DNA from: Octopus vulgaris
Taxonomy: Eukaryota
Assembly: GCA_951406725.2 (NCBI GenBank)
Contig: OX597815.1
Location: forward strand, 7,502,001 to 7,566,000
Direction of reading: 5' to 3'
Length of the DNA: 64,000 nt
Part shown: positions 23,505 to 50,496 of the stretch, in pieces
Layout: the number at the start of each line of letters is the position of its first letter
Position numbering within the stretch: the stretch's first letter is position 1
Notes under the pieces: generated by a model
Database searches by the model: none
Told to the model about the DNA's origin: nothing
What the model saw: the letters and a program-made list of their open reading frames with translations, nothing else
Made by a program: the position numbers and the translations under genes

Positions 23505-24278
23505 GTACAGGACGTCACCAACAGTAATCAACGTTAAATACGAGAACAAATGAGTTAAATACGCAAATAACGAGAGTGAAAAGGACAAATAATGCAACGA
23601 ATGACTCTTCATCAGTTGTCGGCTGAGTCTGAAAATTGTGAACACTGAGAGAAATATTTTCTTTGAAAAGAGAAAAGATGGAAGAGAGATATAGAAGACA
23701 TCCAGTACTTAGAACTTCTGTGCAGGAAAGAAAGATGGTCACGTGAGGAAAGAAAGATGGACGATGGTCACGTGTGAGCAACGAGAGAGAGAGAGAGAAA
23801 AAAAGAGAAAGAGAGCGAGAGAGACAGATAGAAACGATGAAAGGGAAAAGAAGGGAATTAGAGAGGATAGGGGAGAAAACAGTATATATATATATATATA
23901 TATATATATATATATATATATATATATATATATATATAATTAATATTATTCTTTAATTGAACGCCACGCATCCATTTCCAAATAAGTTTATCTTAACCCT
24001 TTTGATGCGACTCTACTCTATACTGTTTTCTCCCCTATCCTCTCTAATTCCTTTTTTTCGCTTTCACCGTTTTCTATCTGTCTCTCTCGCTCTCTTTCTC
24101 TTTTTTCTCTCTCTCTCTATCGTTGCTCACACGTGACCATCGTCCATCTTTCTTTCCTCGCGTGACCATCTTTCTTTCCTGCACAGACGTTCTAAGGACT
24201 GGATGTCTTCTATATCTCTCTTCCATCTTTTCTCTTATATACTTACTTGGAAATGGATGCGTGGCGTTCAATTAAAGA
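23505..24278. mobile_element. Head-to-head inverted pair of putative Penelope-like terminal-repeat fragments around (TA)n
   Basis: 23668-23886 is inverted with 24019-24236, and the 38-bp motif 23950-23987 is inverted with 24241-24278. Related to 45792-46290 and 37190-37425. The Penelope assignment is inferred from architecture and the hammerhead core; no ORF is present. Confidence 0.6.
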
Positions 24279-24760
24279 TTAACAGGAGAAGACAGTAAAT
24301 TCTCCAATCACCCAGTTTCATATAGGTACTGTAAGGAATTATATTTAATTGTTATGTAATTAGCCCATTTATCACATGATCATGTGATCACGTGACCGAC
24401 CAGATGATGAGACGTCTCACATGCAACCCGCTTCTCTAAAAGGGCTGCTCATACTTGATCTAGAAGTAAAGGTTAGCTCAGCACTGCCAGACCATCTAGT
24501 TGATCCTATAGCGAAGTACAGGTCACCGCCACATGGTCAGTACACTCCGATATAACGTATGTAACATATGAGGGTAGACTGTATAACTGTAAACAAAGAA
24601 CCTGGTTACAAGTGGAAAGTACACTTAAATGTTGCATTTAACCCACTTAAATTTAGATGCCATGATAAGTACTGATACTTGATATGAGAATGCACAGCAC
24701 TTCACTCTAAACAATAACGAATAATTATAATTGATAAATGGTCGGTTAGCTTGTAGTGTT

Positions 24761-25393
24761 GGACTAAAATCCTTTCATGAAGAACAAGCGTTCATGAAAT
24801 TCGTTTTCCACTGTAACGCATTATCTTAAAGACATAGCGTTGTTCAAACTATTAAAAGTATTTCTAGGCGTTGTCTTGTCCCAGATAACAATGTCTGACT
24901 TGTGAATCTTTTCAATGTCTGCATGAAATTTTAAATGCTACGCCAACACATTAAATCATATTAGTTATAGTCATAATTTTAATGAATAGAAAGATTTCAT
25001 GCTTTATAGAATTTGTGTGTACACCCTCTCTAGCCATTCACATCCACAATCCTTATTTATATATGTCTATACACACACACACACACACACACACACACAC
25101 ACAAATATAAGTTTACGCACATTAATGTTATGTAGGCATTTACTATTTCTATAAAGCATTAAGTGTTGCTATTCTTCAGAATTATGACTATAACTAATAT
25201 GTTTTAACGTGTTGGCATAACAGTTGAAATTTCACACTATTAATGAAAAGATCAAACGCCCAGACATTGTTATCTGGGATTTCAAAACGTCCTGAGACAC
25301 TTAAGCTAATTTGAACAACACTACGTCTTCAAGATAACGCAATTCAATGGAAAATACATTTTATTTTAGTACCTCGTTGCCTTATTAAAGTCC
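24761..25393. mobile_element. Old foldback/MITE with degenerate inverted arms of about 240 bp
   Basis: About 24761-25012 versus 25147-25393, for example TCCCAGATAACAATGTCTG / CAGACATTGTTATCTGGGA and ATATTAGTTATAGTCATAATT / AATTATGACTATAACTAATAT. Confidence 0.75.
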
Positions 25394-25509
25394 ATAAACC
25401 TATCATATGTGTGTGTATGTGTTTATACATGTATACACAAACACATGTGGGTATAAATATATATATATATATATATATATTTATTTATATTTCACCCAAT
25501 TAATGGGTT

Positions 25510-25909
25510 GGAGTGGCTGTGTGGTAAGTAGCTTGCTTACGAACCACATGGTTCCGGGTTCAATCCCACTGCGTGGCATCTTGGGCAAGTGTCTTCTACT
25601 ATAGCCTCGGGCCGACCAAAGTTGGTAGACGGAAACTGAAAGAAACCCGTCGTATATATGTGTATATATATATATATTTATGTATGAGTGTGTATATGTT
25701 TGTGTGTCTGTGTTTGTCCTCCCAACATCGCTTGACAACCGATGCTGGTGTGTTTACGCCCCCGTAACTTAGCGGTTCGGTAAAAGCTACCGATAGAATA
25801 AGTACTAGGCTTACAAAGAATAAGTCCTGGGTTCGATTTGCTCGACTAAAGGCGGTGCTCCAGCATGGCCACAGTCAAATGACTGAAACAAGTAAAAGAG
25901 TAAAAGAGT
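25510..25909 (+). mobile_element. SINE family A (small internal deletion)
   Basis: Matches the family consensus from head to tail. Confidence 0.92.
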
Positions 25910-26462
25910 AATATATATATATATGTTTGTATATATATATATATATACACACACAGAAACATATTTATATATATACACAAGCATATGAATGCATTCACAT
26001 ACCCATATATATATATGTGCGTGTATATATGCATATATGGACGTATAAGTGGTGGTGAGGTTATAGAGAGATAATATAATATTGGAGAACAAATAATTGA
26101 ATATACCATATACACACGCGCACGCTCTCACTCGCATGATCGCGCGCAGATACGCGTGTATTATAGACAGAATTTCGACTGGGCGACTCGACCTGCAGGA
26201 AAAAGTAACTAAGTATCGCTCAAATCACAACCTACCATAGTAAGAAAGATAGATAACATATATATATATAGCCAGGGATATTATAGTTCACTATAGTGGA
26301 CTAAATCTTGGACGTGTTGATGTTAATTCTGTTGAATCATGGTCGATCTAGGTTAAAACACAACAAGATATAAATTGTAGCTTTGTTGAAGCACGGCTGA
26401 TCTGGGGGTTGAGCAAGAAGGGGACAAAATTGCAGCTATACTGAATCATGTCTAACCTACAG

Positions 26463-47810: not shown

Positions 47811-48764
47811 TGTTTAATAATTCTTTCTGCCGCCTCTCAGAGTTTTTTCTAATGTTCACATTCGATCAGGCTGTTGAATGATGGCTCCGCATACATTTCT
47901 CTGTATGTGTGCCTGTTTTCCCTCCCCCACTCTCTCTGTCTGTTTGTCAGACCATCATCAATTTATCTTTTCTTAATTACACATAAACACAGTCAAACAT
48001 TAAACTGAAGTTATCGCTTAATACCTTCCAGTAGACTAACATTTTTTTTTCCAAGCACAAGTTTGACTGTCACATTTACTTTTTATGTTTGTTTGTGTGT
48101 GTGTGTATAAATATAATATATATATATATATATATATATATATATATATATATATATATATATATATATATATATATAAATATAATATATATATATATAT
48201 ATAAATATATATATATAATTATATATATATAATTATATATATATATGTATGTATATATATATAATTATATATATATAATTATATATATATATGTATGTAT
48301 ATATATATAATTATATATATACATATAATATATATATATATATATATATATATATATATATATACCGTATGTATATACGTACACACACACACACACATAC
48401 AATATGCATACACATATGCGCATACATATGTATATATATATATATACACACACTCATTCACGCAACAGTCTGATGAAGTGAGATGTAAATCATCTCGGAG
48501 TCAATTTAGTGAAGTGTGTCCTTTCTATTAAATCTTATCGACGTAGACAGGATGAACGAAGCGAAGCACCACAAGTAGGGCAAACTCTGATCAACGTTCA
48601 AAAGAGACTCTGTTTACACACATAGATTTCAAGGTGATGTCTCACTTCCTGTGAAGCGGAATATTTCCTGGCTCTGATCAAACAGCGTCCTTTTTTCCCC
48701 TAAATTTATATCAATGCTACAGACAGACATTCAAATCGTCCATCGAATGCGAATTATGTTACAT

Positions 48765-49196
48765 ACTCTTTTACTCTTTTACTCTTTTACTTGTTTCAGT
48801 CATTTGACTGTGGCCATGCTGGAGCACCGCCTTTAATCGAGCAACTCGACCCCGGGACTTATTCTTTTGTAAGCCCAGTACTTATTCTATCGGTCTCTTT
48901 TTTGCCGAACCGCTAAATGACGGGGACGTAAACACACCAGGATTGGTTGTCAAGCAATGCTAGGGGGACAAACACAGACACACAAACACACACACATATA
49001 TATATATATATATATATATATATACATATATACGACGGGCTTCTTTCAGTTTCCGTCTACCAAATCCACTCACAAGGCTTTGGTCGGCCCGAGGCTATAG
49101 TAGAAGACACTTGCCCAAGTTGCCACGCAGTGGGACTGAACCCGGAACCATGTGGTTGGTTAGCAAGCTACTTACCACACAGCCACTCCTGCGCCT
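48765..49196 (-). mobile_element. SINE family A, full length
   Basis: Reverse complement of the family consensus. Confidence 0.93.
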
Positions 49197-49399
49197 ATAG
49201 TTTCTTTTAGGTGTGCAATAGCGACAACTTTGAATGTTTACACGCCATAATATAGCATCGCATCTAGCAGCATCTCAATTTGGTCGATTCCGTCATGGGT
49301 TCGTGTCCTACGAGAAGTTACTGTGTTCTTGCTGTTTCTGAAATAGAAACTTTTCTACCTGGAACTGGAAAAAATAGTTAGAGAAAAGATAAAAATGGA

Positions 49400-49823
49400 C
49401 ATTATGCCATTGTTTTATGATGAATGCTTTCATCGAATTATCCAGTTGAATCAGATTTATGACCCATTGTACTTCGTTCTTTTGTTCTTCAAAACGTGAG
49501 AAAAATTGGCGCATGACGCTTGTGGGTGTGAAAAACAACTAAAAATTACTCAGATGAACTATTATGCTAACAGAATAATATGTTGATACAATGGTTTTGA
49601 AAGGCTTTATTTGGAAGTTAGGTTATCACTAATATACATTGTGTATAGCTATTGCAAAGTTGAAGGACGGCCATAATGGGTTCGAATAAATCAGCATTAT
49701 ATTACTAGGTTCAGATAGATCAGGTGGTGTTTCTAGGACAGCGTCGAGGAATCTTAAAGAAAACTGGCAGAGCTGCTCTCGTGAACATAAGTATGTTACA
49801 TTTTGAAGGAATATATTAAAAAA
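49400..49823 (+). pseudogene. Decayed Helitron Rep-region remnant
   Basis: HRIIQLNQIYDPLYFVLLF, TQMNYYANRI and WVRINQ resemble the RepHel motifs YDPLQYVLLFP, YYAYRL and WIRxNQ. Confidence 0.62.
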
Positions 49824-50496
49824 TTTTTTTTTATCTAGTTTCAGCTCACGAGCTGTGGCCATACTGGGGCACCGCCATTTGGTGTTGCTACATGGTTTTA
49901 CTTCACGAATGCTTTTTAGCAATTGCCATTTGGTGCGTGGGAGAGTTCGATGCAACTGCCCTCATCTGCACCTCCTGCCGTGAAGTTGGTTCATCTGGGA
50001 CACCTGACAGGAAGAGATCCAGTTTTACTTTAATGACATATATCTATTAAAGAATATATCAATGAAATTAAAACTGATCATAAATATGCAACTACATGTC
50101 TTGCAAACAACTTACACATGCAAGTGCTACCAGTCAAAAGCTCCGTATACCGGAAGCCAGCAAGTGTATGGGGTCATCAGGAGAGAATGCGCGCCGTTTC
50201 GGGGCCTACCTCTCGACGGCATCAATACGCACCGGCCCCACTTCACTGATATGAGGTCCCGCTGGCTAGATCACCTGGTTATCAAATAAAGCTCAATATT
50301 CTTCTAGCCATCGCTCATCGTCTCTTTTTAACCAAATCCAGTGGTTAGCCTTTTCCACTGTAGTTTGGATATCGGTCATGGTGGTATTGACTTTACGATG
50401 AGTTAGCCCTAGCGATAACAACAGTCGTCTCACACTGTGTCCAACGAACCCTCTACATCCAACTTCGATTGGAAAATGTTCTGCTTTCCAGCCTGA
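49824..50496 (-). mobile_element. 5'-truncated RLE non-LTR retrotransposon (HERO-like): ORF C-terminus, 3' UTR of about 470 nt, A-tail
   Basis: GWKAEHFPIEVGCRGFVGHS..EKANHWIWLKR (50293-50493) carries the EVGCRGF...WLWxKR signature of HERO-like RLE ends. The element ends ..CTGAAACTAGATAAAAAAAAA and interrupts a Helitron remnant. Confidence 0.8.
50166..50221 (-). ncRNA. Putative strand-swapped hammerhead ribozyme in a LINE 3' UTR, intact core
   Basis: TGCCG-TC-GAGAG ... CCCC-GAAA-CGGCG ... CTCTC-CTGATGA-CCCC. Stems I and III are perfect; canonical stem II is missing. Confidence 0.66.

Follow-up and report, generated by a model that had tools for sequence, protein, structure and literature searches.

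We analyzed a window of 64,000 nt from the Octopus vulgaris genome (assembly GCA_951406725.2, contig OX597815.1, positions 7,502,001 to 7,566,000, forward strand); the genome surveyed is 2.8 Gb, and positions below are window coordinates unless a contig is named. In this window, retroelement-derived repeats carry a rearranged hammerhead motif with a split core, in which the link between A9 and G10.1 is opened and closed again by two helices. We consider it very probable that this fold is real, and from its sequence the motif can reasonably be expected to cleave itself. The full reading, a split-core hammerhead that is predicted to self-cleave and is likely to cut and then circularise the RNA of its element, is favored with somewhat less confidence.

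In all three complete motifs of the window the conserved blocks follow the order cleavage site, GAAA, CUGANGA. Read from 5' to 3', the first half consists of an outer-helix strand, a hairpin (Px), the 5' strand of stem II, a strand of a helix designated P4, a stem III strand and the UH site; after UH come a stem I strand, 2-6 nt, the 3' strand of stem II, GAAA, the second strands of stem III, P4 and stem I, CUGANGA and the second outer-helix strand. Px lies directly 5' of the upstream stem II strand and the outer-helix strand directly 5' of Px, and the partner of the latter is formed by the bases immediately 3' of CUGANGA. CUGANGA, GAAA and UH are in register with stems I and III, with a G8A change in the copy at 46.2 kb. 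A type I, II or III hammerhead was considered for the three complete copies and rejected because they have the order site, GAAA, core with crossed stems; only a copy at 44.3 kb, described below, fits such a type.

Covariation was examined in 15 family representatives (one upstream-truncated copy of family E was excluded). Paired cells amounted to 58/60 for the upstream stem II, 59/60 for stem III, 74/75 for stem I, 54/60 for Px and 56/60 for the outer helix; each of these values exceeded all 2000 partner permutations, and several pair types occurred per position. The first-pass annotation of this DNA had overlooked that stem II does not form beside the core: directly after the core 15/60 cells were paired versus 15.6 expected, and with one extra base 30/60 versus 26.0 (38/2000 permutations). 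In family C, no pairing at all is possible between the bases that follow the core and those that precede GAAA. The first stem II pair (G10.1-C11.1) is G-C in 14 of the 15 representatives, via the upstream strand. In addition, the three-helix upstream model was matched by at most 4 of 200 upstream-sequence shuffles in 15 of 18 sequences, and a sixth helix, P4, connects the two long linkers and is visible in most families. Because stem II pairs with the upstream strand and two extra helices close the A9/G10.1 gap, the motif is not the published type SGC hammerhead.

Several observations should be set against this fold. The pairing counts overstate independence because the representatives are related (~6 independent lineages) and because of the way the helices were positioned: the search itself required stems I and III, and stem II, Px and the outer helix were fitted for the best match, which inflates their pairing. 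The sequences D4, D5 and D6 did not beat shuffles (24, 22 and 78 of 200, respectively). P4 is weak, with only 9 of 17 sequences at or below 5.2% of shuffles and 4 above 50%. Finally, nested folding energies of five sequences, a calculation in which pseudoknots cannot be scored, gave z values of -1.3 to +0.3, and the predicted folds recovered only some of the helices.

The first complete motif in the window belongs to family B (37157..37289, + strand). Its core (37279-37285) is intact, none of 200 shuffles reached its score, and cleavage is predicted after 37233; among the copies of the window it is the best candidate for activity. Its helices are the outer helix (37157-60/37286-89), Px (37161-70/37194-203), stem II (37204-09/37243-48), P4 (37210-17/37265-72), stem III (37228-31/37253-56) and stem I (37234-38/37274-78), with GAAA at 37249-52. 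The surrounding 5'-truncated repeat (37129..37547, +) has no long open reading frame (ORF) that we could see and ends in (TA)n. Four sets of assembled contigs aligned to 37000-37500 gave neither joints nor clustered ends, a kind of data in which RNA ends would not appear in any case. The family A motif (46112..46241, +; 0/200 shuffles) has the outer helix at 46112-18/46235-41, Px at 46119-25/46149-55, stem II at 46156-60/46194-98, P4 at 46162-68/46214-20, stem III at 46177-80/46203-06 and stem I at 46183-88/46222-27, and its predicted cut is after 46182. Its core (46228-46234) reads CUGAUAA, and with this G8A change the copy is likely inactive. It lies in a repeat with approximate ends 45790..46285 (+), pyrimidine-rich in its 5' part and flanked by simple repeats.

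The third complete motif, of family C, is on the minus strand (50171..50262; intact core at 50174-50180; 1/200 shuffles), with the outer helix at 50258-60/50171-73, Px at 50251-57/50240-46 (weakened in this copy), stem II at 50234-39/50201-06, P4 at 50227-33/50186-92, stem III at 50217-20/50193-96 and stem I at 50210-14/50181-85; the predicted cut is between 50215 and 50214. It is located in a 3' fragment of a non-LTR retrotransposon (LTR, long terminal repeat) with a restriction-like endonuclease (50096..50495, -), comprising the end of the ORF followed by a motif-bearing untranslated region (UTR). A half motif of family A2 at 23602..23621 (-) retains a stem I strand, the core (23609-23615) and an outer-helix strand; an internal deletion of ~190 nt removed the upstream blocks, and fuller A2 copies retain all of them. 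Beside it, the 5' part of the same A2 element forms an inverted duplication (23668..24236; 23668-23886 versus 24019-24236, 95% alike), a layout reported among Penelope-like insertions (PMC8557442). Several other A2 copies (L212-L230) have their start within the motif, close to GAAA, as though the folded region frequently stopped reverse transcription. The three strand-swapped motifs, the half motif and the canonical minimal hammerhead listed in the first-pass annotation were all located inside 23601-50240; 2 of the 4 complete motifs carry core mutations.

Descriptor scans covered both strands, and a relaxed version permitted one core mismatch. The strict scan found 2 motifs with the order site, GAAA, CUGANGA in the window versus 0 in each of 50 local dinucleotide shuffles, and the relaxed scan found 3. 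In a genome sample of 120 unselected 10 kb stretches at round-number positions of contigs C1-C29 (1.2 Mb), the relaxed scan yielded 10 reordered motifs (mean of 0.33 in 6 shuffles), 5 canonical-order matches (1.0) and 1 of another order (0.5), so the reordered motif stands above shuffled background. Extrapolation from this sample gives ~23,000 reordered motifs genome-wide (95% range 11,000-43,000). The density of the window, which had been thought possibly typical, is 47 per Mb versus 8.3 per Mb in the sample, i.e., 5-6 times higher (P for 3 or more = 0.017). Family-level BLAST of the same 1.2 Mb found 33 split-type and 20 canonical-family pieces, fragments included, and exact two-block patterns matched 666 times with the blocks of family C, 357 times with those of family A and 0 times with the controls. 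First-look candidates, which are not copy numbers, amounted to 3369 for A, 2260 for B, 2359 for C, 2202 for A2 and 1885 for the canonical family. An exact match in stems I and III, the 3' strand of stem II and the core together was seen at 11 (A), 23 (B) and 14 (C) of the 30 best loci of each family; most dispersed copies, we propose, are truncated or decayed passengers. An Rfam scan of the window gave microsatellite matches to microRNA models and no hammerhead among 150 of the 489 matches. Further split-motif families, D, E and F, occur in the random sample (L133, L140, L160, L166, L093, L192, L196), and family D is the commonest there (6 of 10 matches).

The only canonical-order copy in the window (44330..44364, -) belongs to a different repeat family. 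It is a minimal type I hammerhead with a 4-bp stem II after an unpaired A and a palindromic stem III. It had been described as having a CUGANGA core; the minimal hammerhead is indeed present, but its core reads CCGCCGA, and 12 of 14 other loci of the family have CCGACGA plus the extra A. U4C is common to the family and A6C is specific to this copy. As A6C led to low activity in a natural hammerhead variant (PMC3088659), this copy is likely impaired. The extra A had also been taken as a sign that the rearranged motifs were derived from the canonical one by strand shuffling. In families A and B, however, the outer helix begins with the A that follows the core, which has its U partner far upstream; of the 15 representatives, 8 open this helix with A-U and the others with C-G, U-A, G-C or G-U. 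In Penelope hammerheads generally, an unpaired base precedes stem II (PMC4209133), and the extra A of the 44.3 kb family is such a base, not equivalent to the A of families A and B. The canonical family showed no homology to A, B or C units beyond chance; at two family B loci a canonical-family insertion adjoins. Derivation from the 44.3 kb copy is therefore unsupported, because the extra As are not equivalent and common flanking homology is lacking. A related alternative is that the motif is an ordinary type SGC hammerhead, with stem II after the core and the extra A, formed from a shuffled canonical copy. Families A and B can form 3-4 pairs, including G-U, in that register, four stem II pairs of family A also occur in the canonical family, and the published SGC-2 has one extra base and then stem II (PMC10085705 supplement). 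However, pairing in that register hardly departs from chance over the families as a whole and is missing from C and D, which together with the missing flanking homology makes this alternative very improbable.

The motif of family C is located in the UTR of a 3.74 kb element with a reverse transcriptase (RT) and endonuclease frame of 1175 codons. This frame matched RVT_1 (E 5.7e-19), and its best PDB matches were R2 proteins (chains at E 1e-17). The single ORF contains RT, a CCHC knuckle and a PD-(D/E)xK endonuclease, the last two recognized by eye, and we take the element to be HERO-like. As family C is an RT/endonuclease element and A, A2, B and D look Penelope-like, the two retroelement classes suggested in the first-pass annotation hold, and so does its view of a retroelement-borne, high-copy family, given the family BLAST, the sample counts and the family C ORF. 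At 6 of 12 family C loci examined, two motifs on one strand were spaced 3734-3738 nt from each other and joined seamlessly. The copies recovered through the downstream part by itself all crossed the cut site (30/30, by 39-1501 nt), and 29 of 30 had their ends at +115 to +126 relative to the predicted cut, a position within the repeating unit; copies that start at the cut site were looked for and were not in excess (0/30). In 2 of 4 tandems the two arms had variants in common that differ from the majority (at 8 and 2 sites), and no alignment column separated all 5' arms from all 3' arms in these four. One family C copy (L063, C28:5288706-5291884) lies ~250 nt from an opposite-strand C2H2 zinc-finger exon. 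At a family C2 locus (L208:9060-9598), one complete copy is preceded by three 124-nt partial repeats in tandem, derived from the motif's 5' part; the C2 stems resemble those of the part-12 Naiad record in PMC8557442.

In families A, A2, B and D the units are rich in pyrimidines and for the most part truncated at the 5' end; they end at (TA)n and are in some cases tandem or inverted. (TA)4 follows 23/25 family A and 27/27 family B copies, and family B forms tandem units of 834-879 nt at 4 loci. A linked RT plus GIY-YIG ORF for A, A2 or B was found in none of 60 loci of ~3.2 kb. These families look like non-autonomous Penelope-like derivatives. An RT beside L007 belongs to another Penelope-like family, which has a motif in canonical order of its own. 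The loci L247-L270 (e.g., C2:155255105-155258773) represent a Penelope-like family that is young and abundant (13,883 first-look candidates) and has many 811-codon open frames; by eye, its 3' region appears to contain a minimal hammerhead in canonical order whose core carries a U3-A8 swap.

We propose the following mechanism. The outer helix, Px, stem II and core would meet as a four-way junction replacing the A9-G10.1 backbone link, and G10.1-C11.1 could therefore take its normal hammerhead position; P4 would tie stems I and II to each other at their far ends. Tandem transcripts would be cut to unit length and joined into circles. In family C, reverse transcription would start ~120 nt 3' of the cut, cross the joined site and perhaps exceed one turn, producing partial tandems. 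Circular-template copying was proposed previously for Penelope elements (PMC4209133). The insert pattern of family C is compatible with reverse transcription round a circle joined at the cut, and also with read-through of tandem source copies; circle-based copying is plausible, with the doubt slightly the heavier. Still more tentative is the proposal that this undescribed topology is the missing ribozyme of many Naiad elements and also drives rolling-circle reverse transcription of ribozyme-made circular RNA in a non-LTR element of the R2 superfamily.

It may also be that the fold is real and self-cleaves with no circle formed: long inserts would then arise by read-through of tandem sources, and the cut would only trim or turn over transcripts. 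Partial tandems are typical of Penelope-like elements, and the template used in vitro was mainly unprocessed RNA (PMC11167929); uncleaved RNA would equally explain why all 30 family C copies cross the site, and variants shared by the arms could be inherited from different tandem sources. On the other hand, the absence of a fixed 5'-3' arm difference across the four tandems and the ends of inserts inside the unit, ~120 nt past the site, speak against read-through, and the first tandem would still need an origin. We regard this account as rather unlikely, though it is the more serious of the functional alternatives. The other is that hammerhead parts were used to build a non-cutting structure for protein binding or priming, in which a G-A-rich internal loop beside stem III may act as a kink-turn-like site for protein. 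The P4/stem III loop is bordered by GA motifs in A, B, D and Naiad_Obim, whereas family C has a plain bulge there; an A9/G10.1 core opened by two helices is without precedent in the literature examined, and the nested-fold energy signal is absent. This possibility is improbable considering that CUGANGA, GAAA, UH and G10.1-C11.1 are retained in register over about six lineages, whereas position 7 and the stems all change.

The preferred reading, cleavage followed by circularisation, has its own difficulties. The hammerhead of a lizard Penelope element needed protein in order to cut, was not required for in vitro insertion and had no reads that ended at its site (PMC11167929). Selection of the 12 family C loci by long ORFs or paired matches biases the tandem share, and 2 of the 4 tandems have no shared private variant. 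No ORF is linked to A, B or D. Several Naiad records (parts 13-15, PMC8557442 supplement) carry canonical-order cores, and a recognizable Naiad ORF was present in 0 of 15 in-genome loci with the Naiad motif.

If the motif cleaves, it would break the published assumption that CUGANGA and stem II form an uninterruptible block, and descriptor searches would therefore miss many thousands of animal ribozymes. It would also explain the apparent lack of hammerheads in Naiads, and the old circular-template model of partial-tandem retrotransposition would become directly testable in a non-LTR element with intact copies.

Other features of the window are as follows. A (TGG)n array of 2.1 kb (41414-43560) lies between two similar copies of a ~300-nt repeat (40850-43910). 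A 184-nt repeat occurs as 2-3 tandem units at 29216-29587, 38049-38420, 55447-55986 and 62421-62789, and scans found no hammerhead core in it. Two C-terminal fragments at 11773-12288 and 12704-13054 (+) come from another endonuclease-bearing non-LTR element, and a 158-codon frame at 35990-36463 (-) is DDE transposase-like. No host exon was recognized among the long frames of the window. In Xenopus, a different system, type I retrozymes are reported to be depleted from introns and exons (bioRxiv 10.64898/2026.07.22.740005), which would be compatible with the suggestion of the first-pass annotation that intronic copies could cleave host pre-mRNAs.

Among known systems, Naiads were reported to have eight "half cores" and no canonical hammerhead (Craig et al. 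2021, PMC8557442). Reading the published tails by eye (PMC8557442 supplement), we found the same helices with other letters in Naiad_Obim and Naiad_Ovul, in three near-identical records of parts 10-11 and in one of part 12. These consensus tails give independent support to the split-core fold. The octopus Naiad motif has 192 exact genome matches (control, 0). Naiads also resemble families A and B in their (TA)n targets and in tandem and inverted arrangements (PMC8557442), but no ORF was seen in either family, and they are therefore at most candidate Naiads. With regard to family C, the HERO clade of restriction-like endonuclease non-LTR retrotransposons similarly has one ORF with RT, zinc knuckle and restriction-like endonuclease, and disperses its insertions (PMC4640811); family C differs in its seamless partial tandems and in having no poly(A) tail in the 11 loci examined. 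No literature report of a hammerhead in the HERO clade was found.

Minimal type I hammerheads, the kind to which the 44.3 kb copy belongs, occur in the terminal repeat of Penelope-like elements and were proposed to cut and circularise their precursors (Cervera and de la Pena 2014, PMC4209133). They have the canonical order and almost no stem III and depend on dimers, whereas the split motif has a stem III of 4-7 bp and could fold as a monomer. Non-LTR retrozymes (bioRxiv 10.64898/2026.07.22.740005) are, like the families described here, non-coding tandem units that have one hammerhead each and are linked to Penelope-like elements; their hammerheads are of type I, whereas the units here are 650-880 nt long with the split motif. 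The 2026 retrozyme search used type I models only.

Type SGC (HRIMA-1; Eckert et al. 2023, PMC10085705) is known from metatranscriptomes and shares with the split motif the order site, GAAA, CUGANGA, the crossed stems I, II and III, the short link between stems I and II and a helix tying these stems together. Its supplement has 0 occurrences of "Octopus" or "animal". A search of titles and abstract beginnings, covering literature other than subscription journals and Repbase Reports, found neither a displaced stem II nor its occurrence in animal retroelements. In type SGC, the order site-GAAA-core cleaves in vitro, CUGANGA and stem II are treated as an unsplittable block, and stem II begins within 1-2 nt after CUGANGA (PMC10085705); in the split motif, the stem II strand is found 20-29 nt upstream of the cleavage site, and two helices are added. 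The block order is thus known, and relative to the literature found, the displaced stem II and its carriage by animal retroelements appear to be new.

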